A stretch of 64,000 nucleotides of DNA from contig OZ245046.1 of assembly GCA_965224245.1 (NCBI GenBank), positions 5,952,001-6,016,000 on the forward strand. The letters are read 5' to 3'. How positions within the stretch are numbered: the first letter of the stretch is position 1; each line of letters opens with the position of its first letter. The position numbers were made by a program, and so were the translations under genes. The notes beneath the pieces are model-generated. The model searched no databases and was not told the DNA's origin. It saw only the letters and a program-made list of their open reading frames with translations. The DNA is from Candidatus Eiseniibacteriota bacterium. Its GTDB lineage: Bacteria; Eisenbacteria; RBG-16-71-46; CAZAMP01. Shown here in pieces: positions 10,531 to 29,129 of this stretch.

Positions 10531-11830
10531 CCGCACCTCCTCGCGTGATCGCCTCGGCCATCGCTTCGACCATGATCCGGTTTCCCTCCCCGTTGAAGTG
10601 ACAGCAGGTGTCCACGTACAGCGTCGCGTTCGACCCCGAGAACACGCCGCTGAGGTCGTGGAACTCGACGCCCTCGGCCATCAGGCGTTGCCCCGCCTCC
10701 CGGAGGAGCGGATACCCGGCCTCGACCGCCGGCTTGTAGGGGCTCTCGACGTCGAACGCGAGCGCCTCCTCGTCGGACGACAGGGGCTTCGAGCCCGGGT
10801 CGTACTGGTTCGGCTGAAGCACGTGGACGTACCGGATGCCGTGTGCCTCGCAGATTGCATGCAGCTGCATCGAGCATCGCTCCCAGACCGCCACGCACTC
10901 GGGCACGAGCTCCTCGGCCGGCAGGTGCATCCGCGCGGACGAGCGGATGAACCACGGGACCTCGTCTCCGGAGAGATCCTGCAGCGCCCAGGCGTACTCG
11001 GAGATCCGGCGCTCGAGCTCCCGGTCGTCGGCTCGCCGGATCAGCTTCGCGATCGGGGAGAACGACCAGAAGGACCGGTGAAACCGCTCGAGCCTCACCG
11101 CGCGCTCGTCCTTCAGATACGCGATCGCGCCGAGCGCGTTGCGCACACGCGCATCGGGAACGTCCAGCGCGACCATGCTCCAGTTCATCGGGAAGAGCGG
11201 GTGAAGGCCCTGGGGGGCGTTCAGCACCGCCGGCACCGCCACCTCGTTGAAGCCGTCGAGGTTGATCACCAGGTCGAACTCGCCGCCCTGAGCCAGCACG
11301 TACGCCAGCTGAATGACCTGCTGCGGCTGGTGATAGCCGGGCATCCCCAGCCACACGAAGTCCAGCTCCAGATCCTCGAAGCCGGGCTGCCGCCCGAGCG
11401 CATCGGCCAGGAGCCGGGTGTGCCACGTCCCGAGCTGCCCGGCCACGGAGCCTCCGGTGACCCCGACCACGAGCCGTCCCTCGGCGCGCTCTCGCAGCGC
11501 GGGCTTCGCGTCGAGGAAGCCGTCCTCGCTGACCGGGATCGCCGCCGGCCCCGGCGTCTCCCGCTCCTCGTTCGGCCAGAAGACGTAGCCGAGATAGGGA
11601 TGGAGCGCCATCGACGGGTCCCGGAAGCCGAGCCCCGCCCGCTCGCGTCCCGGCTTCATGTCGGGGGTGCCGAGCGAGTCGGTGAGACTGTCGGCCGGTG
11701 CGGGCGTCTCGTCGGTGGACCGCGAGGGGAGCGGCACCTCCGGCCGGTAGAGGAGCTGGACGCTCGTTTCGAGAAGGACGTACGCGGCGAGCAGCACCGC
11801 GATCGCCAGGCCGATCCCCTTCGTGGACAT
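10517..11830 (-). CDS. Membrane-anchored SGNH/GDSL-hydrolase-like protein
   Basis: N-terminal TM; blocks GVTGGSVA, NLDGFNE, LQPNQY and YVDTCCHFNGEGN; GGAGG upstream of ATG 11830. Confidence 0.7.
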   Translation of the reverse strand: MSTKGIGLAIAVLLAAYVLLETSVQLLYRPEVPLPSRSTDETPAPADSLTDSLGTPDMKPGRERAGLGFRDPSMALHPYLGYVFWPNEERETPGPAAIPVSEDGFLDAKPALRERAEGRLVVGVTGGSVAGQLGTWHTRLLADALGRQPGFEDLELDFVWLGMPGYHQPQQVIQLAYVLAQGGEFDLVINLDGFNEVAVPAVLNAPQGLHPLFPMNWSMVALDVPDARVRNALGAIAYLKDERAVRLERFHRSFWSFSPIAKLIRRADDRELERRISEYAWALQDLSGDEVPWFIRSSARMHLPAEELVPECVAVWERCSMQLHAICEAHGIRYVHVLQPNQYDPGSKPLSSDEEALAFDVESPYKPAVEAGYPLLREAGQRLMAEGVEFHDLSGVFSGSNATLYVDTCCHFNGEGNRIMVEAMAEAITRGGADARS

Positions 11831-11918
11831 CACCCGTGCCTCCGTGTTCTCGGGGTCGTGGGACTGTGTGGCCACGGCGATGTCGCGAGGATCGGTCGGA
11901 CTTCGTCGCGGCTGATTG

Positions 11919-11963
11919 TGACCATGGTCATTTATTGACTACGGTCATAGTAGACGGTAGGGT
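11919..11963. promoter_or_regulatory. Tandem TetR-type operators TGAC-N4-GTCA overlapping a sigma70-like promoter
   Basis: TGACCATGGTCA (11919-11930, perfect palindrome) and TGACTACGGTCA (11936-11947). TTGACT(11935)-17 nt-TAGGGT(11958) points at tetR. Confidence 0.75.
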
Positions 11964-12081
11964 TTCACGCATCAACCGGGCCCGCGGGGGATCGCCCCCG
12001 GGCCGAGCACCCCGGGATCCTCGTCGTGGCCGGGCGGAGGGCCGCCGTCCGGTCGGCCGGACACGAAGGGAGGACTCCGAC

Positions 12082-12744
12082 ATGGCGCCGAACGATCCCG
12101 ACCGCTCCGACCGCTCCGACCGCCCCGACACGGCGCCCGACGCCCCGGGCGCCCGGCGCCGCCGGCGACGAGCGAAGCTCAAGGCCGAGATCTTCGAGGC
12201 GGCCATGACCCTCTTCGCCGAGAAGGGCTACGACCACGTCACCGTGGACGAGATCGCGGCGGCCGCCGAGATCGCCAAGGGGACGTTCTTCAACTACTTC
12301 CCGACCAAGGAGCACGTGCTCGTGGAGTACCGCCACGCGCTCCTGGACGACGCTCACGCCTACGGCGCGTCCCTCGACGGCGACTCCGCGCGTGAGCTCG
12401 TGAAGGCGTTCCATCGCCGGCTCGCGCGCAACGTGTGCGCGGAGGGCTCGCGCTACGACATGGTCCTCAGGGAGGTCGTGGCCCGGCCGCATCTGATCGC
12501 GCACGACCGGGAGTACCAGGGGCGGTATCGACCCTACTTCGAGCGCTTCATCGCGATCGGAAAGCGATCCGGCGAGATCCCGGCGGACTGCGACCCGGGG
12601 CTGTTGATGGAGACGCTGCGCGACCTCTGGACCGGCACCAGCATCACGTGGATGCTGGAGGCGCCCGACGAGCCGCTGGAGACGCTCGTCGACCGCAAGA
12701 TCGACTTCGTCTTCGACCTTCTCGACACCCGCGCGCGGAAATGA
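12082..12744 (+). CDS. TetR/AcrR family transcriptional regulator
   Basis: HTH signature LFAEKGYDHVTVDEIAAAAEIAKGTFFNYFPTKE; GGGAGG before ATG 12082. Confidence 0.93.
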   Translation: MAPNDPDRSDRSDRPDTAPDAPGARRRRRRAKLKAEIFEAAMTLFAEKGYDHVTVDEIAAAAEIAKGTFFNYFPTKEHVLVEYRHALLDDAHAYGASLDGDSARELVKAFHRRLARNVCAEGSRYDMVLREVVARPHLIAHDREYQGRYRPYFERFIAIGKRSGEIPADCDPGLLMETLRDLWTGTSITWMLEAPDEPLETLVDRKIDFVFDLLDTRARK

Positions 12745-17253: not shown

Positions 17254-18075
17254 GTGACCAGAATATTCGCCGATGGGCACGTTCATGTGTACCCCGAATA
17301 TGATCCGCGGTCGTTTGGTCGCGCTGCGGCGGCCAGGGCCGCCGAGTACGGGGGTCCGCTCCTGCTGTGTCTCGCGGATGTTCATGGGGCGAAAGCGTTT
17401 ACGGAGCTGGACGCGACGCTGTGGGAGCCCGCGGGGGAGTCTCGATCCCGGCGCATGCGGTCGGGCGTCGCCGGCGAGTCGACCGCGGGACGGGACGCCC
17501 ACCCCGTGCACGTGGTGTGCGGCCGTCAGCTCGTATCGGCCGAGGGGCTGGAGGTGCTGGCGCTGGCGCTGGACCCCACCGACCCGTTGAACGAGGAGCC
17601 CGCCCGCGAGAGAGGGGCGCGGGATCTGGCCCGGGCCGGCCTCGAGCGGGGCGCGATCGTCGTCCTGCCGTGGGGCGTCGGCAAGTGGATCGGCGCGCGC
17701 GGGCGTCTCGTCGAGCGGCTCGTCGCCGACGCGGATCTTCGGCGGCATCCGAGGTTCTTCCTCGGCGACATCGCGCATCGCATCGGGTCGTGGCCACACC
17801 CCGGCGGAGAGGAGGCCGTGCGCGTCCTGCCCGGGTCCGACGTGCTCCCGTTGCCGGGCGACGAGGCGCGTGTCGCCCGATACGGCTTCTCGATCGACGT
17901 GCGCTGGGATCCCGACCGTCCGGCCGCCGCCCTGCTCGAGGCACTGGAGGAGGGACGCGACGTCGTCCCGGTGGGTCGGCGCGAGCCGCCGTGGCGCGTC
18001 GTTCGCGATCAGCTGCGTTACCGGCGGCACCGCGCCCGCTCGCGCGGCCGGGAACGGAGGCGATCGGGTGCCTGA
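17254..18075 (+). CDS. Hypothetical protein with an N-terminal D-x-H-x-H (PHP/amidohydrolase-like) metal motif
   Basis: GGAGGAG then GTG 17254; FADGHVHVYP, EGLEVLAL, LPWGVGKW, LPGSDVLP; overlaps the next gene. Confidence 0.65.
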   Translation: MTRIFADGHVHVYPEYDPRSFGRAAAARAAEYGGPLLLCLADVHGAKAFTELDATLWEPAGESRSRRMRSGVAGESTAGRDAHPVHVVCGRQLVSAEGLEVLALALDPTDPLNEEPARERGARDLARAGLERGAIVVLPWGVGKWIGARGRLVERLVADADLRRHPRFFLGDIAHRIGSWPHPGGEEAVRVLPGSDVLPLPGDEARVARYGFSIDVRWDPDRPAAALLEALEEGRDVVPVGRREPPWRVVRDQLRYRRHRARSRGRERRRSGA

Positions 18076-19471
18076 GCGCGTGGACGTATTGATCGTCGGC
18101 GGTGGCATCCAGGGCGTCACCGCGCTCATCGAGGCGGGGCGCCGCGGACTGTCGGCGTTGCTCGTGGAGCGGGCCGACTTCGGATCGGGCGCGTCGTCGA
18201 ACTCGATGAAGATCGCGCACGGCGGCCTTCGCTACCTCCAGTCGCTGGATCTCGCGCGGAGCACGGAGTCGGTCCGCGAGCGCCGGCGATGGCTCCGGCT
18301 CGCGCCCGACCTCGTGCGCCCGCTCCCGTTCCGCATGGACCTCGGCGGACGGAGCGGCCTCTACCGGCTCGCGTTCCGGATCGGTCTCCGCGCGAACGAC
18401 GTCTTGACCGCCCACCGGAACGACGGCGTCCGTGACGACGCCCGGCTCCCGGACTCTCGCCATCCGATCTGGTACGACGCGTTCGTCACCGATACCGAGC
18501 GGCTGCTCTTCGACGTCCTGTACACGGCCACCACGCGGTTCGGGGATCGCGTCTCCGCCCGGAACTACACGTCGATCGTCGAGACCGAGCGCGCGGCCGG
18601 ACGCGTCGCGGCGGTCCGGCTCGACGACGGCACGCGTGTCGAGACGCCGTGCGTGCTGTCGTGCGTGGGTGCGCATCGGCGCAGCTCGTCCCCGATCCTG
18701 TCGATGAACCTGTGCGTGCCCCGGCTGGAACTGGTGGCCGACGGGGTCGGAATCGGCATGCGGCATCCGACCGACGGGCGAAACGTGTTCGCGGTGCCGT
18801 GGCGGGACGTCACGATCGTGGGCACGATCAACCGGCCGTATCCGTTTCCGCCCGAGGAGCCCTTCCGACTCGAGCCGTCCCGGATCGACGAGGTGCTGGC
18901 CTGGCTCCGACTGGTACACCCCGAGCTCGCCGCGCTCGACCGGCGCGACGTGCGCTTCGTGCATGCGGGCATCCTGCCCGGCGGCGGTCGGGGTGACGAC
19001 CCGTCGGACGATGCGAGCGTGGAGGATGCCGGCGACGGGCGTGTCGAGGTGTCCGGCGTGAAGTGGACGACCGCGTGGGCGGTGTCCGAGCGGGCGTTGG
19101 ATCTCGTGTGTCGCCGGCTGGGACACCGCGGTGCCGCGGATCCGGTGATCGACCTGGTGGACGTGCACGAGGCTCGGCAGGCCGCGGTCGGCCCCGCGGC
19201 CGCGGGGCCCGACGAGGACCCCTCGCCGGCCGATCTGCGCTTCCTGGTCGACTCGCTCTGGGCCCGGACCCTCTCGGACGTGCTCCTCCGGCGGCTGCCC
19301 ATCGCCACCACGGGCCATCCGGGGCGGGCCCGCGTCGAGGCGATCGCGCGCGATCTCGCGGCGTGCCGGGGCTGGTCGGATGCCGCCCGCGAGGCGGAGA
19401 TCGCCGCGTTCGACGCCGAGCCTCGCTTCGCCGGGAACACCGGCGATCCGGCGGCCGCATCGCACCCCTGA
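18068..19471 (+). CDS. FAD-dependent oxidoreductase, glycerol-3-phosphate dehydrogenase (GlpD)-like
   Basis: DVLIVGGGIQG; ERADFGSGASSNSMKIAHGGLRYL; GVKWTTA; ARTLSDVLLRR. Confidence 0.85.
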   Translation: MPERVDVLIVGGGIQGVTALIEAGRRGLSALLVERADFGSGASSNSMKIAHGGLRYLQSLDLARSTESVRERRRWLRLAPDLVRPLPFRMDLGGRSGLYRLAFRIGLRANDVLTAHRNDGVRDDARLPDSRHPIWYDAFVTDTERLLFDVLYTATTRFGDRVSARNYTSIVETERAAGRVAAVRLDDGTRVETPCVLSCVGAHRRSSSPILSMNLCVPRLELVADGVGIGMRHPTDGRNVFAVPWRDVTIVGTINRPYPFPPEEPFRLEPSRIDEVLAWLRLVHPELAALDRRDVRFVHAGILPGGGRGDDPSDDASVEDAGDGRVEVSGVKWTTAWAVSERALDLVCRRLGHRGAADPVIDLVDVHEARQAAVGPAAAGPDEDPSPADLRFLVDSLWARTLSDVLLRRLPIATTGHPGRARVEAIARDLAACRGWSDAAREAEIAAFDAEPRFAGNTGDPAAASHP

Positions 19472-19531
19472 CAACACCCGCGCGCGGTGCGTAGAATGTC
19501 GGGCCGATACTCGAGACCCGAGGAGACCGTC

Positions 19532-20857
19532 ATGTCCGCACCGTCCGTGAGTGCCCACTTCGAGAGCCGAGCGCCGTCGGTCATCCGGCTCGCCCAGATC
19601 CGATTCGCGGCCCGAGACGACGGCACCCGCGCGATCAACGTGGCGATCGGCAACGTCTCGCTGCCGATGCACCCGGCCATGCGCGCGCGGCTGACCGCTG
19701 CGGGGACCCCCGGGCACGCCTTCGCCGACGGACGGGTCATGTACACCGAGACCGTCGGGACCGCCGAGGCCAACCGGGCGGTGCTGAACGTGATCGCGGC
19801 CAGCGGGCTCGACACGCGGTCGCTCCGCACGCAGATCACCGACGGCGGCTCCCAGGCCATGGAGCTCGTGATCGTGGGGCTGTGCGGGCCGGCGGGGTCC
19901 CGCGAGCGTCCGCTCCTGGTCATCGACGCGGCCTACACGAACTACACCGCGTTCGCGGCACGCCTCGGACGTCGGACCGTGTCGATCCGCCGGTCGCTCT
20001 CGCCGTCGGGCAAGTTCTCGCTGCCGCCGCTCGACGAGATCGAGCGGGTGATGGACGACGAGAAGCCCGGCGCGATGGTCGTGATCCCGTACGACAACCC
20101 GACCGGCCACTACTACGATCGAGAGACGATGCTCTCGCTGGCGAGACTGTGCGTGACCCACGACGTCTGGATGGTCAGCGACGAGGCATACCGGGAGCTC
20201 TACTACGTCGGCGGTCCGCCCACGAGCATCTGGAGCATCACCGACGCCGACGTACCCGGGATCGAGGGACGCCGCGTCAGCATCGAGACCACGTCGAAGG
20301 TGTGGAACGCGTGCGGCCTCCGCATCGGCGCATTGGTGACCGACAACCCGACGCTGCACACGCGCGCGGTGGCCGAGAACACGGCCAGCCTGTGTCCGAA
20401 CGCGATCGGTCAGCACATCTTCGGTGCGCTGGCCGAGGAAACGCACGAGGACCTCCAGGCCTGGTTCGCGTCCCAGCGATCGTACTACGCGGACATGCTC
20501 GCGGGCTGCCACGCCGACATGACCGCGGCCGTGCCCGGGATCATCATGTCGAGCCCCGATGCGTCCATCTACTCGGTGGTCGACGTCCGTGACGTCGTCG
20601 ACGATCGCTTCGACGCGCTCGACTTCGTCCTGTACTGCGCCGAGTCGGGTCGCCTCGACGTGGACGGCGTCCCGACGACGCTCCTGACTGCACCCATGGC
20701 GGGGTTCTACTCGGTGCCGCCGGGGACGCCCAACCCGGGGCGCACGCAGATGCGGATCGCGTACGTGGTGCCGCCGGCCGACATGCGCAAGGTGCCGGCG
20801 CTCTTCGCGGGGCTGCTCGAGGCATACCTGGCCAGGCGGGGCCGCGGTACGGCGTAG
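19532..20857 (+). CDS. PLP-dependent aminotransferase class I/II
   Basis: TDGGSQA, PYDNPTG, SDEAY, TSKVWNACGLRIG (PLP lysine), MRIAY; AGGAG RBS. Confidence 0.9.
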   Translation: MSAPSVSAHFESRAPSVIRLAQIRFAARDDGTRAINVAIGNVSLPMHPAMRARLTAAGTPGHAFADGRVMYTETVGTAEANRAVLNVIAASGLDTRSLRTQITDGGSQAMELVIVGLCGPAGSRERPLLVIDAAYTNYTAFAARLGRRTVSIRRSLSPSGKFSLPPLDEIERVMDDEKPGAMVVIPYDNPTGHYYDRETMLSLARLCVTHDVWMVSDEAYRELYYVGGPPTSIWSITDADVPGIEGRRVSIETTSKVWNACGLRIGALVTDNPTLHTRAVAENTASLCPNAIGQHIFGALAEETHEDLQAWFASQRSYYADMLAGCHADMTAAVPGIIMSSPDASIYSVVDVRDVVDDRFDALDFVLYCAESGRLDVDGVPTTLLTAPMAGFYSVPPGTPNPGRTQMRIAYVVPPADMRKVPALFAGLLEAYLARRGRGTA

Positions 20858-20956
20858 CAACGGCTCCTCCACCGCGTCGGCGCCGTGCTACCATCCCGGG
20901 TCGTAAAGCCAATTTTCTGGTTACGATCGGTAAGCCGATCATGTGAGGAGATCCCG

Positions 20957-21430
20957 ATGATTCCCGTAACCGCGAAGCGAGTCGCGGCGGTCCTGGCCGT
21001 CGGCGCCGGAGTGCTGGTCCATCATGCCTGCGGGGGTGGGAAAGAGGAGCCGCCCGTGGATCTCGGCGAGCCGGAGAGCTACCGCGTCACGCTGATCGTG
21101 CACGACGTCGCCGGCTCGAATCTGTGCGAGAACATCCAGATAGAGGCCAGCGTCACGGGGAGGACCTTCGAGGACGTGCCCTACTCGGCACGCAATGCGT
21201 GCGACGTCGAGTTCGAGGCGTGCGAGTTCTCAAAGGTATGGAGCAGCGTCGAGGTGCCCTCCGGCAGCATGATGACCATCGAGGTGAGAGCCACCGAGGC
21301 GGGCGAGGAGCTCTGGTCTCTCGACGACACCGTCACGCCCACCGCGAACATGACCCTGTGCTACGAGCGTCCCGAATCCGCTCGGGATCTCGGGCACTCG
21401 GGGTGCTGGAACGAGCATGGCTGTCCCTAG
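20957..21430 (+). CDS. Cys-rich secreted protein or lipoprotein, function unknown
   Basis: GAGGAG then ATG 20957; KR + hydrophobic stretch + VHHAC|GGG; six further Cys. Confidence 0.65.
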   Translation: MIPVTAKRVAAVLAVGAGVLVHHACGGGKEEPPVDLGEPESYRVTLIVHDVAGSNLCENIQIEASVTGRTFEDVPYSARNACDVEFEACEFSKVWSSVEVPSGSMMTIEVRATEAGEELWSLDDTVTPTANMTLCYERPESARDLGHSGCWNEHGCP

Positions 21431-21442
21431 ACGGGGAGTCGT

Positions 21443-22285
21443 GTGTGTGATCCCCGTGTGAACCCGTACCTCGTCGATCTGGGAACGGTCGCCGTGCCCG
21501 GCGTGGGCGAGATCCGTCTCTGTCTGCCGGCCTACGGCACGCTGTTGATGACGGCTCTCCTCGTCGGTCGTTGGTGGTTCCTGCGATCGATCCGGCGTGC
21601 GGGGTTGGATGAGCACCGCGCGCGTCGGATCGTCGTCGCCTCCCTGGTGGCCGCCCTCCTCGGCGCGAAGGTCCAGCCCCTCCTCACGGAGATACCCGCA
21701 CTCACGCGCGATCCCGGATCGCTGGCGTCGCTCGACCATCTCCTGACCGGCGGCTCGGTCTGGGCGGGCGTCGTGACCGGCATCGCCGTCATGGCGTGGC
21801 TTTCCCGCCGGTACGGGCTGGGTGCGCTGCGAGTGCTGGACCTCGCTGCGGTTCCGCTTCCCGTCTGCCAGGCGCTGGGCAGACTCGGTTGTCTCCTCGC
21901 GGGCTGTTGCTACGGAGCGCCCTGCGAGGTTCCCTGGGGGATCACGTACCGGTCGGCGACCGCCCACGCCTTGACCGGAGTGCCGCTCGGCGTTCGCGTT
22001 CACCCGAGCCCCGTCTACGATGCGCTCTGGTCGCTCGGCATCGTGCTTCCCGGGGTGATTCTCGCGCGACGGCTCGGGGGGCGGGCGGGGATCACCACCG
22101 CGGTCTACGTCTCGCTCTACTCGCTCGGACGCCTGCTGCTGGAGACGGTGCGCGGTGATCCGGGGCGTGGAGCGTGGATCGGCATCCTCTCGACGAGCCA
22201 GGTGATCTCGATCGGGGGACTCGCATCGGCAGCCGTGCTCGTCGTGGTGATTCGGAGCTCCCTGGTGTCGCCGGCGAACCGTTGA
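21443..22285 (+). CDS. lgt: Prolipoprotein diacylglyceryl transferase (Lgt) family protein
   Basis: AYG, LGAK, LGRLGCLLAGCCYG, PWGITY, HPSPVY, GRLLLETVRGD, STSQVIS; multi-TM. Confidence 0.88.
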   Translation: MCDPRVNPYLVDLGTVAVPGVGEIRLCLPAYGTLLMTALLVGRWWFLRSIRRAGLDEHRARRIVVASLVAALLGAKVQPLLTEIPALTRDPGSLASLDHLLTGGSVWAGVVTGIAVMAWLSRRYGLGALRVLDLAAVPLPVCQALGRLGCLLAGCCYGAPCEVPWGITYRSATAHALTGVPLGVRVHPSPVYDALWSLGIVLPGVILARRLGGRAGITTAVYVSLYSLGRLLLETVRGDPGRGAWIGILSTSQVISIGGLASAAVLVVVIRSSLVSPANR

Positions 22286-22435
22286 GGCAACGCGAATCCG
22301 CGCGCACGGTTCTCAGCGCCGAGATGAACGAGACGCTCTCGCGGCGATCCCGTCCTCGTTCGAATGGGTGGGTGATGGCTCTGGAGTATGAGAGGATCCC
22401 GGCGTTGGACCGATTCCATCTCACCGAGGGAGCCA

Positions 22436-23617
22436 ATGTCACTACCGTCCACCCACGCCGCGTCCGGCGTGACGTGGCCGGTCACCACCACCGTGGGGGC
22501 CGGGCTGCGCGGCGCCATCGCGACCACGAGTCGCGTCGCCTGGCTCGACCCGTCGGGGCGGCTCCTCTATCGCGGCGTGCCGATCGAGTCGCTCGTTCAC
22601 GGTCCGAGCTTCGAGGAGATCGCGTTTCTCCTCCTGTGCGGCCGCCGACGCACCGACGACCCGTCCGGATGGTCACGATTTCGCGAGGATCTGCGCGAGA
22701 CGATGGTCATTCCCGATCGCGTCCGCTCGCTGATCATCGCGATGGGGCGGGACGCGGCTCCCCTCGATCGACTGCGCGCCGGCGTCTCCGAGCTCGGCGC
22801 GATCGGCGGCGCCGAGCGTGAGGAGACGTCGTCGCGTCTACTCGGTCGTCTCGCCGCGCTCCTGATCGGGATCGCCGCCGACGAGCGGGGCCTGGGGCTC
22901 CGGATCTCGACCGGCCGTGCCACGATCAGCGAGCGCTTCCTCCACGAGATCCTGGGCGCGCGTCCGGACACGACCGCGCTGGCCGCCCTCGATACGACCC
23001 TGATCGCGTATGCCGACGACGGCCTCGCCCCGCAGACCTTCGCCACGCTGGTCGTGGCCAGCTGCCTCGGCGATCGGTGCTCCGCGCTCGTGGCCGGACT
23101 CAGCGCGGCCAGCGGCTCCCGCGCGTCCGGGGCCGCGGTCACGCTGGCCGAGGCGATCGCCGGCCTGGGCGGCGCCTCCGAGGTCGAGGCGTGGATCGAC
23201 GGAATCCTCGCGCGCGGCGAGCGACTCCCCGGCTTCGGTCACCGGGTCTTCGGCGCGCGCGATCCACGGCTCTCCTTGCTGCGCGGGGCGGCCGAGCGGC
23301 TCGTGGAGCGCGGCGTGACCGCGTTCGATCGCGACGAGGGGCGGCGGATGCTGGACGTCGCGCGCGCCCTCGAGACGGTCGGGACGTCTCGACTGGAGTC
23401 GCGGGGGATCGGCGCGAACGCCCACATCTATGGCGCGCTCGTCCTCTCGCTCCTGGGCGTCCGGCCGCGCGTCATCCCCTTCATGGTCGCGTTCGCGCGC
23501 TTCGCCGGGGCGCTGGCCCGCGTCGACGAGTACCTCTCGCACAACCGGATCTTCCGCCCGCTGGACCGGTACACCGGGCTCGATGCGCGTCCGTTCGCGC
23601 CCCTGGAGGCGCGTTGA
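22436..23617 (+). CDS. Citrate-synthase-fold protein 1, catalytic His/Asp substituted
   Basis: GRLLYRG, SFEEIAFLLL, GFGHRVF..RDPR and NRIFRP..YTG. However AEH>ADD, GPLHGGA>GSRASGA and NVDF>NAHI. Confidence 0.85.
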   Translation: MSLPSTHAASGVTWPVTTTVGAGLRGAIATTSRVAWLDPSGRLLYRGVPIESLVHGPSFEEIAFLLLCGRRRTDDPSGWSRFREDLRETMVIPDRVRSLIIAMGRDAAPLDRLRAGVSELGAIGGAEREETSSRLLGRLAALLIGIAADERGLGLRISTGRATISERFLHEILGARPDTTALAALDTTLIAYADDGLAPQTFATLVVASCLGDRCSALVAGLSAASGSRASGAAVTLAEAIAGLGGASEVEAWIDGILARGERLPGFGHRVFGARDPRLSLLRGAAERLVERGVTAFDRDEGRRMLDVARALETVGTSRLESRGIGANAHIYGALVLSLLGVRPRVIPFMVAFARFAGALARVDEYLSHNRIFRPLDRYTGLDARPFAPLEAR

Positions 23618-24747
23618 GGCCGGGTGACTGGCAGCCCGGCCGCCAGACGTACGAGCGGGGGCTGGCCGATCTCGTGATCGGAGACAGCTCGATCAGCCGC
23701 ATCGACGGCGCGAACGGCCGACTCTGGTATCGCGGTTACGCCATCGAGGACCTGGCCGCGCACGCGAGCTTCGAGGAGGTCAGCTACCTGATCCTCGAGG
23801 GGGAGCTTCCGGACGCGCCGGCGCTCGCCGCATGGCGAGACGAGCTCGCCGGGTGGCGTGAGCTGCCGGAGGAGGCTCTGAAGGCGATCGCCGCGCTGCC
23901 GTTCGGACACGATCCGTTCGATGGGTTCCAGACCGCCATGGCCGTCGCCGCGTCGGTGGCCCCCGAGCGCGACGCGCGCGATCCGGTGGTGCTTCGCCGA
24001 CACGCGGCGCGGATCCTGACCTGGACCGCCGGACTCGCGGCGGCGTGCATTCGGAAGCTCCGCGGCCAGTCGCCGGTGTCGCCACGCGAGGACCTCGACT
24101 ACACATCCCACTTCCTGTGGCTCGCGAACGGACGGGAGCCCGACGACGTCGAGCGGAGCGCGCTCGAGGTGACGATGATCGTGAAGGCCGAGCACGGCGT
24201 TCACGCCGCCGCGCTCACCGCGCTCGTGGTGGCCTCGGCCGGCGCCGATCTCGACAGCGCGGTGCTGGCCGGCATCGGCGCGCTCTCGGGCTCGCTCCAC
24301 GCCGGCGCGAACCGGGCCGCGTACCGCATGGTCCTCGAGCGACGCGATCCAGACGACGCACGGACGTGGGCACGCGCGCGACTGGCCGAGCGGTACCGCT
24401 TTCCGGGCTACGGTCACCGCGTATACAAGAGCCACGACCCGCGGGCGATGCTGATGGCGCCCCACGCCGAGCGACTCCTCGCGCGCGCCGGCCGTGCCGA
24501 CGAGTGGGCGCGTTTCGTCGCCATGCGCGACGAGATCGAGACCGCGCTCGGGCCTCGCGGTATCCGCGGGAACGTGGACGCGCTGACCGGCTTCATCTAC
24601 GAGCCCCTCGGGCTGCCCGAGGAGGCGTTCACGATTCCGTTCTGTCTGGCCATCCAGACCGGCTGGATGGCGCACTGCCTCGAGTACCTCGAGCACCTGG
24701 GGCCGGTGATCGAGCCCACGTCGCTGTACCTCGAGGAGCCCTCCTGA
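23614..24747 (+). CDS. Citrate-synthase-fold protein 2, catalytic residues intact but substrate arginines substituted
   Basis: TTG start overlapping the upstream stop (TTGA). GRLWYRGY, KAEHG, GSLHAGAN, GYGHRVYKSHDPR and NVDA. ARxxGW>AIQTGW and IRP>IEP. Confidence 0.88.
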   Translation: MRPGDWQPGRQTYERGLADLVIGDSSISRIDGANGRLWYRGYAIEDLAAHASFEEVSYLILEGELPDAPALAAWRDELAGWRELPEEALKAIAALPFGHDPFDGFQTAMAVAASVAPERDARDPVVLRRHAARILTWTAGLAAACIRKLRGQSPVSPREDLDYTSHFLWLANGREPDDVERSALEVTMIVKAEHGVHAAALTALVVASAGADLDSAVLAGIGALSGSLHAGANRAAYRMVLERRDPDDARTWARARLAERYRFPGYGHRVYKSHDPRAMLMAPHAERLLARAGRADEWARFVAMRDEIETALGPRGIRGNVDALTGFIYEPLGLPEEAFTIPFCLAIQTGWMAHCLEYLEHLGPVIEPTSLYLEEPS

Positions 24748-24921
24748 CGCCGGACACCCTCGCGGTCGTACGGTCCTGCCTTCCTCGCCACCGCCTCCCG
24801 ATCGAGCCGGGTACGTAGAACCCACGACTGCGCCGGGTGCGATCACACCCGTATCCTCGGCTCGGGAATCTGTCCGAACGCAAACCGTCCGTACGTGGAG
24901 GATCAGGACAAGGAGAGACCC

Positions 24922-25971
24922 ATGGTTGGCATCGTCGGCTACGGCGCGGACATGCCGCGCTACCGGATCAAGGTGGAAGAGATCGCCAAGGTCTGGGGAG
25001 CCGATGCCGCGGCATTCAAGCGCGGGCTGCGGCTACAGGAGAAGTCCGTGCCGGCGCCGGATCAGGACGTGATCACGATGTCGGTGGAGGCCGCGCGCCG
25101 CGCGATCCGTCGGGCCGCGATCGATCCCCAGAAGATCGGGGCGCTGTACATCGGATCCGAGTCACACCCCTACGCCGTGAAGCCCAGCGGCACCGTCGTC
25201 GCCGAGGCCATCGGCGCCACCCCGGACGTTCACACCGCCGACTACGAGTTCGCGTGCAAGGCGGGATCCGAGGGGATGTTCGTGGCCGCGAGCCTCGTCG
25301 AGGCGGGGGCCGTCGAGTACGCGGTGGGCATCGGGGCCGACACGTCCCAGGGCGCGCCGGGTGACGCGCTCGAGTACACGGCTTCGGCCGGCGCCGCGGC
25401 GTTCATCTTCGGCTCCGAGCACGTCGTGGCCAGCGTGGACGCGACGCACAGCTTCATGACCGACACCCCGGACTTCTGGCGGCGCGAGCATCAGTTCTAC
25501 CCGCGCCACGCCGGGCGCTTCACCGGCGAGCCGGCGTACTTCAAGCACGTCCGGGGCTGCGCGACCGCGCTCCTCGACAAGACCGGCACCCGGCCCGAGG
25601 ACTTCCGGTGGGCGGTGTTTCACCAGCCCAACGGCAAGTTCCCGATGGCGGTCGGGAAGTCGCTCGGCTTCACCACCGAGCAGATCGAGCAGGGCTGGCT
25701 CGTGCCGCTCCTCGGCAACACGTACTCGGGCTCGTCCCCGATGGGTCTCACGGCGGTCCTCGACGAGGCGTCGCCGGGTGATCGCATCTTCATGGTCTCG
25801 TACGGATCCGGCGCCGGAAGCGACGGCTTCGTGTTCACGGTGACCGACGAGATCGAGCGCGTGCGACCGCGCGCTGAGAAGACACGCGACCTGTTGACGT
25901 CGAATCGCCGGCACCTCGAGTACGGCGAGTACGCGAAGTTCCGCGAGAAGATCCGCAAGCTCCAGGTGTGA
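24922..25971 (+). CDS. mvaS: Archaeal-type hydroxymethylglutaryl-CoA synthase
   Basis: MVGIVGYG, GSESHPYAVKP (Glu), EFACKAG (Cys), DTPDFWRR, FHQPNGKFP (His), GNTYSG, SYGSGAGSD; AAGGAG RBS. Confidence 0.92.
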   Translation: MVGIVGYGADMPRYRIKVEEIAKVWGADAAAFKRGLRLQEKSVPAPDQDVITMSVEAARRAIRRAAIDPQKIGALYIGSESHPYAVKPSGTVVAEAIGATPDVHTADYEFACKAGSEGMFVAASLVEAGAVEYAVGIGADTSQGAPGDALEYTASAGAAAFIFGSEHVVASVDATHSFMTDTPDFWRREHQFYPRHAGRFTGEPAYFKHVRGCATALLDKTGTRPEDFRWAVFHQPNGKFPMAVGKSLGFTTEQIEQGWLVPLLGNTYSGSSPMGLTAVLDEASPGDRIFMVSYGSGAGSDGFVFTVTDEIERVRPRAEKTRDLLTSNRRHLEYGEYAKFREKIRKLQV

Positions 25972-26022
25972 GCGCGTGCCCCTCGCGGGGTGACGCCGGC
26001 GATTTTGGCAAGGAGTACCGTC

Positions 26023-27180
26023 ATGAGAGATGTCGCCGTCATCGGTGTCGGCATGCGGAAGTGGGGCGAGCTGTGGGAGGAGTCCCTCCGGCAGATGTTC
26101 ACCCGCACCGCGCTCGACGCCCTCGACGATGCCGGCGTCGATCACATCGACGCCATGTACGTGGGATGCATGTCCTCGGGTCTGTTCGTCGGTCAGGAGC
26201 ACCTGTCCTCGGTGCTGAGTGACTACCTCGGATGCAATCCGATCCCGGCGCTGCGGGTGGAGGCCGCCTGTGCATCGGGTGGGATGGCCGTCCGCCAGGC
26301 GATCCTCGACGTCGCGAGCGGCGCCAGCGAGATCGTCCTGGCCGGCGGGGTCGAGAAGATGACCGACGTGGACGGTGGCGGCGCGACGTTCGCGCTGGCC
26401 ACGGCCGCCGACCAGGAGTACGAGGCCTACAACGGCATCACGTTCCCGGGTCTGTACGCGCTGATGGCTCGTGCCCACATGGAGCGCTACGGCACGACGC
26501 GCGACCAGCTCAGCGCGGTCGCGGTCAAGAACCACGCGAACGGGGCCCTCAACCCGCACGCGCAGTTCCCGACCCCGATCACGCCGGAGACGGTGTCGTC
26601 GTCGGTCATGGTCGCCGACCCGCTCCGGCTGTTCGACTGCTCGCCGATCACCGACGGCGCGGCCGCCGTCGTGGTGTGTCCGCTGGATCGGGCCGCCAAG
26701 CTCGGGAAGGGAACACCGGTCCGCGTGACCGGGATGGGGGCGGCCAGCGATACGATCGCACTCCACGACCGTTCCGACCTCACCGAGATCGCGTCGACGC
26801 AGCGGGCGGCCGAGATGGCCTACGGCATGTCGGGAAAGGGACCGGGAGACCTCGATCTCGTCGAGGTGCACGACTGCTTCACGATCGCCGAGCTCATGGT
26901 CGTCGAGGCGCTCGGGCTCGTGGATCGAGGCCACGGTGGACCCGCGACCCTCGCCGGTGAGACGAGCCGGGATGGCCGGATCCCCGTGAACCCCAGCGGT
27001 GGGCTCAAGTCGAAGGGACACCCGGTCGGGGCGACGGGCGTGGCGCAGATCGTCGAGCTCGCCACGCAGCTCCGCGGTGATGCCGGCGATCGACAGATCG
27101 CGAACGTACGGTGCGCGCTGGCGCAGAACATGGGCGGCACCGGAGGAACCTCCGTGGTGCACATCCTGGAGGTGGTGTGA
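26023..27180 (+). CDS. Archaeal/SCP2-type acetyl-CoA acetyltransferase (thiolase)
   Basis: [55 protein letters not shown]. Confidence 0.92.
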
Positions 27181-27578
27181 TGTCGTCTCCGAGATACTGG
27201 CGCGAGGTGCCGCAGCGCTACCGGTACGAGGCGACCCGGTGCTCGGGCTGCGGCCGCGTGCACTTTCCGCCGCGGCCGGTGTGCCCCAAGTGCCGCTCCC
27301 GGGAGGCCACGCCGACGAGGCTGGCCGACGAGGGGCACGTGGTGTCGTACACGATGATCCACATCGCCCCCACGGGCTTCGAGGATCAGGCACCGTATCC
27401 GATGGCCGTCGTGGAGACCGACGACGGCGCGCGTCTCCTGGCCCAGATCGCCGACTGCGACGAGGAGAACCTGGAGACCGGGATGCGGGTTCGCATCGCG
27501 TTCCGGAAGATCCAGGAAGAGGGCAAGTCGGGAATCATCTGCTACGGGTACAAGTTCGTACCCGCCTCGACCACGTGA
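27180..27578 (+). CDS. DUF35 Zn-ribbon/OB-fold protein (thiolase-HMGCS scaffold)
   Basis: CSGC...FPPRPVCPKC rubredoxin-like ribbon, SYT.IH, PY..AVVE, GMRVRIAFRK, YGYKF; start overlaps the thiolase stop. Confidence 0.93.
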   Translation: MSSPRYWREVPQRYRYEATRCSGCGRVHFPPRPVCPKCRSREATPTRLADEGHVVSYTMIHIAPTGFEDQAPYPMAVVETDDGARLLAQIADCDEENLETGMRVRIAFRKIQEEGKSGIICYGYKFVPASTT

Positions 27579-27614: not shown

Positions 27615-29129
27615 TCACCGGAGGATCCGCACCGGTGCGGTCCACGTGACGTGCGACCCGGTCACCCGCACGTAGAACGTCCCCGGTGCGACCACTCGTC
27701 CGGACTCGTCCTCGGTATCCCAGCGAACGGTGGCCTCGCGACCGAGCGGCGGCACCGGTCCGAGGTCGCGCACACGGCGACCGGTCACGTCCAGCACCTC
27801 GACGCGGACGTCCGAGGAGCGATCCGGGAGTCGCAGCGTGATCGCCACCGAACGGCGCGCGGGGTTCGGCGTCACGCCGAGCGCCGGGGTGTCCGGCACC
27901 GTCGGAGGTGAGTCCGCCCCGATCGGGCTCCGGTACGTACCGTGCCGCGCCATGATGAACGGCCCCTCGGGTGTCGATTCGTCCCACAGGACGAGGATCC
28001 TCGCACGAGGCTCCGAGACGGGGTTCTCTCCGCCGACCGCCACGTGGCGGATGCCCGACGGCGTGAGCGTCATCACGTCACCGAACCCGAGGTCCCCGAT
28101 GCTGTGGGCGAACGTGTGGACGGGCTCCCCGCCGGGGGGAAGATCGGTCCAGGTGCCGAGCCAGTCCCATTCGAACGCCGGCCATCCCAGATCGACGAAG
28201 AAGCCGTCGAGATTGGGCGACACCGACGGCACGCCGTCCTCCGGAGACACCGGAACGGCGCCGCCGACGAGAAGCGTGCCGCTGTGGTTGCACTCCCAGA
28301 TCTCGGACACGCTCTCGGGGTCGGGCGGCGTGAACTCGAAGAGCGTCCGGAAGTGCGGATAGGCGAGGTCGGGGCAGCAGAAGTTGGCGTGCACCGATGG
28401 GCTCGTGCAGTTGCCGGAGAGATCGGTCAGCTGCTCGATCGAACCCCAACCGTCGTCCGGTGACAGCGTTCTCGCGAAGAGCTGCGTGAGCGGTCCGTCG
28501 AGATCCTCGTAGACGACCGTGAACCAGCCGAACGCGGGATAGTCGGTGACCGAGGGCACGTGCGCGGACCCCGGCGTGCCGGAGACGTCGAACACGTCGT
28601 CCCACGAGCCGTCGTCGTGGAGTCGGCCGCGTATCGACGAGCCGGACGCCGTCTCGTCCTCCCAGACCACGAGCGCGCGGCGCGCGCCGTCGTCGGTGCC
28701 CGCGACGACCGGACCCGAGGAGGGGTCGGGGCTGTCGCAGCTCACGCACTCGGGTGCCGACCAGCTCGTCCCATCGCCCTGGGCGACGAACACCTCCGTG
28801 GATGCGAACGCATCGGCTTCGTAGACGACGAAGAGATCGTCGTCGTGGTGGGCGAGGTGCGCGCTCCGGGCCCCGGAGAACTCCGCCACCCGGGACCATG
28901 CGCCGCCGGCTCGAACGCAGTGAACGACGGACGAGGGCTTCTGGTACACCACGTGCCAGTCACCCGCGAAGTAGACGATGGACGTACCCGCCGGTGTCGA
29001 GACCTCGAGCCCCTCGCGATCCACGACCTCCGGCGGGTCCCACTCGATCATGCCGGTGGCCAGTCCGGGGATGATCGACAGAAGGGCTGAGGGGACGAGT
29101 GCGGCGAGCCCGGCTCGTGTCTCGAGCAT
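27615..29129 (-). CDS. Secreted beta-propeller-like protein with a C-terminal FlgD-Ig/T9SS-like sorting domain
   Basis: Signal peptide; repeated 'VV[YW]E/D...W...VS...S..P' blades; C-terminus TPNP...VLDVTGRRVRDL...WDTEDESGRVVAPGTFYVRV; AGGAGG RBS. Confidence 0.78.
   Translation of the reverse strand: MLETRAGLAALVPSALLSIIPGLATGMIEWDPPEVVDREGLEVSTPAGTSIVYFAGDWHVVYQKPSSVVHCVRAGGAWSRVAEFSGARSAHLAHHDDDLFVVYEADAFASTEVFVAQGDGTSWSAPECVSCDSPDPSSGPVVAGTDDGARRALVVWEDETASGSSIRGRLHDDGSWDDVFDVSGTPGSAHVPSVTDYPAFGWFTVVYEDLDGPLTQLFARTLSPDDGWGSIEQLTDLSGNCTSPSVHANFCCPDLAYPHFRTLFEFTPPDPESVSEIWECNHSGTLLVGGAVPVSPEDGVPSVSPNLDGFFVDLGWPAFEWDWLGTWTDLPPGGEPVHTFAHSIGDLGFGDVMTLTPSGIRHVAVGGENPVSEPRARILVLWDESTPEGPFIMARHGTYRSPIGADSPPTVPDTPALGVTPNPARRSVAITLRLPDRSSDVRVEVLDVTGRRVRDLGPVPPLGREATVRWDTEDESGRVVAPGTFYVRVTGSHVTWTAPVRILR

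Follow-up and report, generated by a model that had tools for sequence, protein, structure and literature searches.

A 64,000-nucleotide stretch of the genome of a Candidatus Eiseniibacteriota bacterium (contig OZ245046.1, positions 5,952,001 to 6,016,000; hereafter, the window) contains two overlapping genes of the citrate synthase family, designated here CS1 (22436–23617, + strand) and CS2 (23614–24747, + strand). Their products probably act together as an obligate CS1:CS2 heterodimer with one composite working site and one dead site, an accessory enzyme with an altered acceptor. Citrate synthase is a textbook homo-oligomer in which the active site is shared between identical chains: the site is built from two chains, and the C-terminal region of the partner lends an arginine. 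The fold and the shared-site architecture of the pair are already known, while its division into a catalytic and a putative non-catalytic gene product and the apparently remodeled acceptor pocket are new. No description of a heteromeric or heterodimeric citrate synthase was found in the literature, where wider matches were judged by titles and abstract openings and subscription journals and supplements fell outside the scope; the words "citrate synthase" are absent from the text of a review of heteromeric enzymes (PMC12141560).

The gene structure, the residue patterns, the conservation of the pair, the purifying selection on both genes and the presence of a canonical enzyme beside them are observed; from these we infer a physical heterodimer with a single active site and an altered acceptor. 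In the proposed scheme, a single old gene duplication would have given rise to the two subunits of an obligate heterodimer with the citrate synthase fold. CS2 would provide the catalytic machinery, comprising the equivalents of His274 (acid), Asp375 (base), His320, Arg329, and His238; the numbering is that of pig citrate synthase. CS1 would be a conserved non-catalytic subunit, with R374 of its C-terminal arm lent across the interface into the acceptor site of the partner. The working site would consist of the CS2 body and the CS1 arm, and the dead site of the CS1 body and the short CS2 tail, whose Glu would point into the dead CS1 pocket. Since Ile replaces Arg401 and His replaces Asn242 in the working site, the complex would most likely condense, or cleave or hydrolyze, an acyl-coenzyme A (acyl-CoA) with an acceptor unlike oxaloacetate at the end clamped by Arg401.

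Gene Structure and Family Assignment

CS1 codes for a protein of 393 amino acids with an ATG start preceded by a Shine-Dalgarno-like GAGGGAG sequence, the two together spanning 22426–22438 (+ strand). Its length and N terminus agree with those of its closest relative, P0005, which also has 393 residues and is 72% identical over the full length. CS2 codes for 377 amino acids and begins with TTG, the sole in-frame start upstream of the conserved N terminus (Q11) of the CS2 family. The junction between the two genes (23605–23617, + strand) comprises GGAGG (23605–23609), a 4-nucleotide spacer and TTGA (23614–23617), in which, as read directly from the sequence, the TTG start of CS2 overlaps the TGA stop of CS1. 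CS1 was characterized by its translation, the PF00285 match, alignments, family residue counts and the ratio of nonsynonymous to synonymous substitution rates (dN/dS), and CS2 by its translation, the PF00285 match, alignment to the 1iom structure and family residue counts.

Both products match PF00285 (cut-off 27 bits) along the profile, CS1 with 211.4 bits (profile positions 1–356 of 357) and CS2 with 302.2 bits (positions 1–355 of 357). Both are thus full-length members of the family, and the sequence read bears out the statement of the first-pass annotation, made from the letters of the window, that two citrate synthase paralogs overlap at TTGA. Neither protein reached the cut-off of any NCBIfam model for citrate synthase, methylcitrate synthase or citryl-CoA lyase. 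TIGR01800 (2-methylcitrate synthase/citrate synthase II) was the top NCBIfam model for both, with scores of 284.7 for CS2 and 202.9 for CS1 against a cut-off of 421.3. The best scores with citrate synthase equivalogs (e.g., NF010639, NF041157, and TIGR01798) were 271.1 against 550 for CS2 and 192.2 against 590 for CS1, and the best score with citryl-CoA lyase models was 83.3 against 212, the cut-offs of these models spanning 193–409.

Active-Site Residues of the Window Proteins

Residues were assigned by means of HMMER alignments to 1iom and 1vgp, along with a MAFFT alignment that included the canonical citrate synthase of the same genome. CS2 retains the motifs AEH, LHAGAN, GHR, DPR, and NVD, equivalent to His238, His274, His320, Arg329, and Asp375. 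His274, His320, and Asp375, expected in one chain of a functional citrate synthase, thus occur together in CS2 (LHAGAN, GHR, and NVD) and not in CS1. The Arg401 position of CS2 is Ile (AIQTGW) and the Arg421 position is Glu (IEP), while NAST is changed to HAAA, with His at the Asn242 position, and NVDF to NVDA. The tail past the Arg421 position has 10 amino acids in CS2 and 19 in both CS1 and the canonical enzyme of the genome. All changes that the first-pass annotation listed for this gene are present in the 1iom and MAFFT alignments.

The losses in CS1 are complementary. It carries Asp at His238 (ADD), Ala at His274 (RASGA), and His at Asp375 (NAH), and retains His320 and Arg329 (GHR and DPR), the arginine at the Arg401 position (FARF), the IFRP arginine (R374, the Arg421 equivalent) and a full C-terminal arm. 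Of the arginines expected to bind oxaloacetate, Arg329 and Arg401 from the same chain and Arg421 from the partner, CS2 itself has only Arg329, with Ile and Glu at the other two positions; the Arg421 for the CS2 site could come only from CS1.

Conservation of the Pair and of Its Residue Pattern

A search with a CS1-family profile, with one genome per species, yielded 67 loci, three of which (L067, L068, and L071) are ordinary single citrate synthases. In four of the remaining 64 loci the sequence stops at most 95 nucleotides past CS1. In all 60 loci with room, a CS2 homolog, 42–60% identical to that of the window, is located directly downstream on the same strand. According to record titles, the hosts belong to the Acidobacteriota (Holophagae, Thermoanaerobaculia, and Sulfomarinibacteraceae), Calditrichaeota, LCP-89, Eiseniibacteriota, Methylomirabilota and other groups, and are mostly metagenome bins. 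ORF clustering in 62 loci revealed no partner gene beyond the pair that is conserved across lineages; the largest cluster of co-occurring neighbors is confined to particular lineages, being found in 18 loci, and is not matched by Pfam.

Residues were counted in 59 CS1 and 59 CS2 homologs, with the window excluded. His274 is lost in 59/59 CS1 proteins and kept in 58/59 CS2 proteins; Asp375 is replaced by Asn in 57/59 CS1 proteins and kept in 54/59 CS2 proteins. The arginines show the opposite distribution. Arg401 is kept in 57/59 CS1 proteins and is Ile in 57/59 CS2 proteins, and Arg421 is kept in 56/59 CS1 proteins, the corresponding position in CS2 being occupied by Glu (40), Ser (6), Asn (3), Asp (3), Ala (3), Gly (1), Leu (1), and Arg (1), with one gap. 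At the Asn242 position, CS1 has Asp (59/59) and CS2 has His (55/59). Common to both families are Arg329 (59/59 in each), His320 (58/59 in each), and His238 (58/59 in CS1, 59/59 in CS2). The family median length of the tail past the Arg421 position is 9 amino acids in CS2 and 19 in CS1.

By these counts, the family-wide losses of CS1 are those of His274 and Asp375. The first-pass annotation had listed His238 as a third loss; all three are present in the window, but the last one is confined to its sub-lineage, comprising the window CS1, P0005, and P0006. The same complementary losses are seen in 59 homologous pairs spread over several phyla, and the pattern is therefore more than chance. The proposed search for conserved pairs with the same substitutions thus succeeded, both for gene order and for the complementary losses.

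Selection and Evolutionary History

Nei-Gojobori dN/dS values were computed for 45 locus pairs with 75–97% CS1 identity, and the ranges given here cover 40 of them; these pairs share history, so they are not independent, and they were drawn from outside the window's own sub-lineage. CS1 values range from 0.05 to 0.59 in the 33 pairs with a finite value, the single value above 0.35 coming from a pair with very few changes, and CS2 values, finite in 32 pairs, range from 0.07 to 0.32. Purifying selection acts on both genes, and consequently gene 1 is not decaying. Its neutral decay had been named beforehand as an outcome that would overturn the heterodimer, and was not seen. The idea that CS1 is a decaying duplicate, a functionless pseudogene in the making, could draw on the loss of a third active-site residue (His238) in the window lineage and on a CS1 branch longer than that of CS2. 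It is nevertheless highly improbable in view of the intact CS1 reading frame, the 59 CS1 homologs spread over several phyla, the 44 columns that do not vary in an alignment of 31 rows, dN/dS values that mostly fall between 0.05 and 0.35, like those of CS2, the retention of Arg421 in nearly all CS1 proteins, and the full-length relative P0005.

In a quick IQ-TREE search of 56 rows, CS1 sequences form one clade (Shimodaira-Hasegawa-like approximate likelihood ratio test, SH-aLRT, 99) and CS2 sequences another (SH-aLRT 100). The two are sister clades, set apart from 16 other citrate synthases with SH-aLRT 89, and a FastTree phylogeny of 138 rows agrees. Path distances of CS1 and CS2 are correlated (r = 0.86, 55 loci), with CS1 distances only about 1.2 times those of CS2. 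These results fit one old duplication followed by co-inheritance. The nearest relatives of both window proteins are those of L011, from the one further genome in the order of the window (G006), and of L040; the pair is therefore native rather than a recent import. A metagenome scan for closer relatives returned four loci, with a best identity of 32%.

Predicted Complex

The CS1:CS2 complex prediction scored 0.94 in three runs, versus 0.00 for the best of three controls, with a predicted local distance difference test (pLDDT) value of at least 89 for the partners. At least 94% of the predicted contacts agree between runs. The method had been calibrated on 80 solved complexes, 58 of which reached the mark, and on 110 mismatched pairs, 2 of which did. 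The predicted interface, obtained as a list of residues, includes CS1 residues 370–391, which hold R374, and CS2 residues 195–199, 222–229, and 269, segments that flank or include the equivalents of His238, His274, and His320. As to the multimer check proposed by the first-pass annotation, the heterodimer prediction passes and the CS1 arm segment with R374 is placed at the interface.

Several points weigh against the obligate heterodimer. Since many structures of citrate synthase homodimers exist, the prediction cannot tell a mixed dimer from homodimers, and it probably passes by likeness to these structures. The congruence of the trees is expected of any two co-inherited neighbors. No fused CS1-CS2 protein was found among 8000 longer candidates, which is weak evidence. 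Asp375 is absent in 4 of the 59 CS2 homologs (Tyr in L006 and L014, Gly in L030 and L042), and therefore neither subunit of those pairs has the usual base.

The CS2 genes of these four loci are located at about 11170–12270 or 1612–2694, and CS2 of L006 also has Gln for His274. The fifth CS2 protein that deviates at Asp375, that of L010, reads through a frameshift. One of the two citrate synthase genes is frame-broken, in at least two pieces, in L010, L052, L058, L061, L062, L069, and L070, which also counts on the negative side; the broken frames in these seven loci, mostly long-read metagenome bins, are probably sequencing errors rather than pseudogenes.

A mixed dimer may also not form at all. 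CS2 could be a homodimer with no need of the trans arginine, e.g., an acyl-CoA lyase or a thioesterase, and CS1 a separate ligand-binding or regulatory protein. Homodimers are compatible with the complex prediction, the fused form was not found, and the pocket of CS1 itself could bind a di- or tricarboxylate, as His238, His320, Arg329, and Arg401 are kept. Within a mixed dimer as well, the presence of these four residues together with the invariant Asp at the Asn242 position suggests that the dead CS1 pocket may be self-occupied or still ligand-binding. The lack of a mixed dimer is unlikely, however, because the adjacency and order of the genes are invariant in 60/60 loci, the CS1 stop and CS2 start codons overlap in the window, and the trans arginine and the C-terminal arm are exactly complementary, kept in CS1 and lost in CS2, a division difficult to account for unless the two chains pair with each other.

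A mixed dimer with one composite site is thus well supported as the putative form of the enzyme. The claim that neither homodimer would be complete, and that a 1:1 heterodimer would give one composite site, finds strong comparative support in the invariant order, the complementary losses, the low dN/dS and the congruent trees; the complex prediction also passes, probably by likeness.

Relation to Ordinary Citrate Synthase and the Methylcitrate Pathway

The window genome contains four members of the family, namely a canonical enzyme of 424 amino acids, a divergent copy and the pair. The divergent copy (L003:1174–2658; G000:C1, about 3409091–3410203) is eukaryote-like, with the motifs HGLAN and GYGHGVLR, and has a very long tree branch. 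A further full-length citrate synthase is present in 7 of 10 other sampled pair-bearing genomes, and all seven of these enzymes have the complete canonical residue set. Among 78 genomes of at least 90% completeness from the order of G001, family matches number three in 27 genomes, two in 4, one in 45 and none in 2. Genomes with three matches typically contain two adjacent genes of about 1.06 kb and a separate gene of about 1.14 kb; residues of this third gene were checked in G001 and G002. Since most pair-bearing genomes also carry a complete ordinary citrate synthase, the pair is considered an accessory enzyme.

Other genomes point in the opposite direction and add to the case against this assignment. 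G006 (97% complete), G211, and G212, three of the ten sampled, have no other full-length citrate synthase and encode the pair alone, or the pair and a short citryl-CoA-lyase-like gene. In these three, the pair could be the citrate synthase of the cell.

Such genomes, with G212 and G250 showing the same in the survey of the order, are an argument for a heterodimer that is just a second, ordinary citrate or 2-methylcitrate synthase isozyme, with oxaloacetate as the acceptor, His at the Asn242 position standing in for Arg401 and the dead subunit serving regulation or half-of-sites economy. At all other catalytic and acceptor-site positions CS2 has the canonical residue, and citrate and methylcitrate synthase models are the best family matches. 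We consider this explanation less probable, although it deserves real weight. Set against it are the near-universal replacements of Arg401 by Ile and of Asn242 by His in CS2, scores far below every curated cut-off (e.g., TIGR01800), and the 27 genomes of one order in which the pair accompanies a third gene of ordinary length; in addition, where a third copy is missing, the genomes are metagenome bins, and 2 of the 78 genomes surveyed have no citrate synthase of any kind.

The methylcitrate version faces a further difficulty. Methylcitrate synthases use oxaloacetate and keep Arg401. In the same order, genomes with the pair (22 of 29) have PrpD-family genes as often as genomes lacking it (38 of 49), and in G001 the PrpD-family gene and the pair are located on different contigs. 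A methylcitrate role finds no support, given this missing association with PrpD-family genes across the 78 genomes and the missed TIGR01800 cut-off.

The Acceptor and a Possible HMG-CoA Connection

The pair, as a heterodimeric accessory enzyme, may use an acceptor other than oxaloacetate, because Arg401 is replaced by Ile and Asn242 by His in 57 and 55 of the 59 CS2 homologs and a canonical citrate synthase coexists with it. Arg401 clamps the carboxylate beside the keto group of oxaloacetate. If this role is right, Ile at this position would favor an acceptor without that carboxylate, e.g., a 3-oxoacid. Passages of the preprint 10.1101/2024.11.06.622199 are loosely consistent with such a clamping role. 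On the other side, His at the Asn242 position could replace Arg401, leaving oxaloacetate as the acceptor.

The neighborhood of the pair offers one specific candidate. The working site would keep the residues for the CH2-COO− arm of the acceptor and take a 3-oxoacid such as acetoacetate, and the heterodimer would be a citrate-synthase-fold 3-hydroxy-3-methylglutaryl-CoA (HMG-CoA) lyase, HMG-CoA hydrolase or HMG synthase, here forming, with three adjacent genes, a non-mevalonate HMG-CoA route. This is a long shot. The three genes encode an archaeal-type HMG-CoA synthase (24895–25971, + strand; NF003274, 536.7 bits against a cut-off of 244), beginning 148 nucleotides downstream of CS2, a thiolase (25990–27180, + strand; NF004720, 527.5 against 420), and a DUF35/OB-fold protein (ORF 27111–27578, + strand), assigned with Pfam and NCBIfam.

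No HMG-CoA reductase was found in the window genome, which is 97.4% complete. Among 206 genomes of the phylum, the archaeal-type HMG-CoA synthase is present in 32, the reductase in 16 (including the unpublished G077), and both in 4, so that 28 of the 32 synthase-bearing genomes lack the reductase. This distribution suggests a non-mevalonate use of HMG-CoA in the phylum. The trio of thiolase, HMG-CoA synthase and DUF35 genes, however, is found near the pair only in the window, L005, L017, and L047, is located on another contig in the sister genome G006, and is unmatched in G005, where the pair is present and both HMG-CoA synthase and reductase are absent. The HMG-CoA link is for these reasons a lead rather than a finding.

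Genomic Neighborhood of the Pair

The pair belongs to a run of co-directional + strand genes marked out by codon-position G+C, and no terminator-like sites were found on the + strand between 17870 and 27578. Upstream of CS1, a 151-nucleotide gap is preceded by four tightly spaced genes (17870–22285, + strand). They encode a glycerol-3-phosphate-dehydrogenase-like flavin adenine dinucleotide (FAD) enzyme (533 amino acids), matched by equivalog models at its N terminus only, a class I/II aminotransferase (456 amino acids), a protein of 181 amino acids that matches neither Pfam nor NCBIfam models, and an Lgt-like membrane protein, a diacylglyceryl-transferase paralog of 280 amino acids that scores 82 bits against the TIGR00544 cut-off of 119.

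Class I/II aminotransferases of about 390–400 amino acids are also encoded in other loci, right after CS2 in L016, L024, and L045 and one gene further in L005, L017, and L047; the upstream aminotransferase of the window differs from that of these six related loci (about 25% identical). Beyond the DUF35 gene, on the – strand (27615–29129), a 504-amino-acid protein is encoded in which Pfam recognizes nothing but a FlgD Ig-like domain at the C terminus (residues 427–492). An actinomycete secondary-metabolite cluster, considered for this window of 70% G+C, was rejected; the genome belongs to a small phylum (206 species) and to an order of two genomes.

Significance and Comparison With Known Systems

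If the proposed heterodimer is real, it would be a natural and widely distributed case in which duplication has split a shared active site over two genes, and a clean natural example of the transition from a homomer to an obligate heteromer. The genes of about 60 species would be spared a plain "citrate synthase" annotation, making reconstructions of the tricarboxylic acid (TCA) cycle in uncultured bacteria less distorted. Given the conserved Arg-to-Ile change in the acceptor pocket, the substrate could point to a condensation or cleavage reaction new to central carbon metabolism.

The closest known systems are the dimeric type I citrate synthases, archaeal/Gram-positive-like enzymes such as those of Thermus thermophilus (1IOM) and Sulfolobus tokodaii (1VGP), which have the same fold and about 375–395 amino acids. 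They are also the closest solved structures by sequence, 1iom for CS2 (E 2.8e-67) and 1vgp for CS1 (E 6.1e-51). Known type I enzymes form homodimers or hexamers, in which both sites are complete and identical, whereas the pair divides the catalytic residues and the lent arginine between two genes, and its putative working chain, unlike these enzymes, has Ile at the Arg401 position. PrpC, the methylcitrate synthase of the TIGR01800 subfamily, provides the best-scoring model for both proteins, yet the scores are well under the cut-off and no PrpD-family gene adjoins the pair. Citryl-CoA lyase (Ccl of Hydrogenobacter, PDB 6HXP) and the corresponding module of ATP-citrate lyase belong to the same superfamily and set a precedent for the cleavage of a CoA thioester in place of the complete synthase reaction. 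The match of CS2 to 6hxp is weak (E 7.9e-15, residues 179–359), and citryl-CoA lyases are truncated proteins of about 260 amino acids, whereas CS1 and CS2 are full length, with the N-terminal region present.

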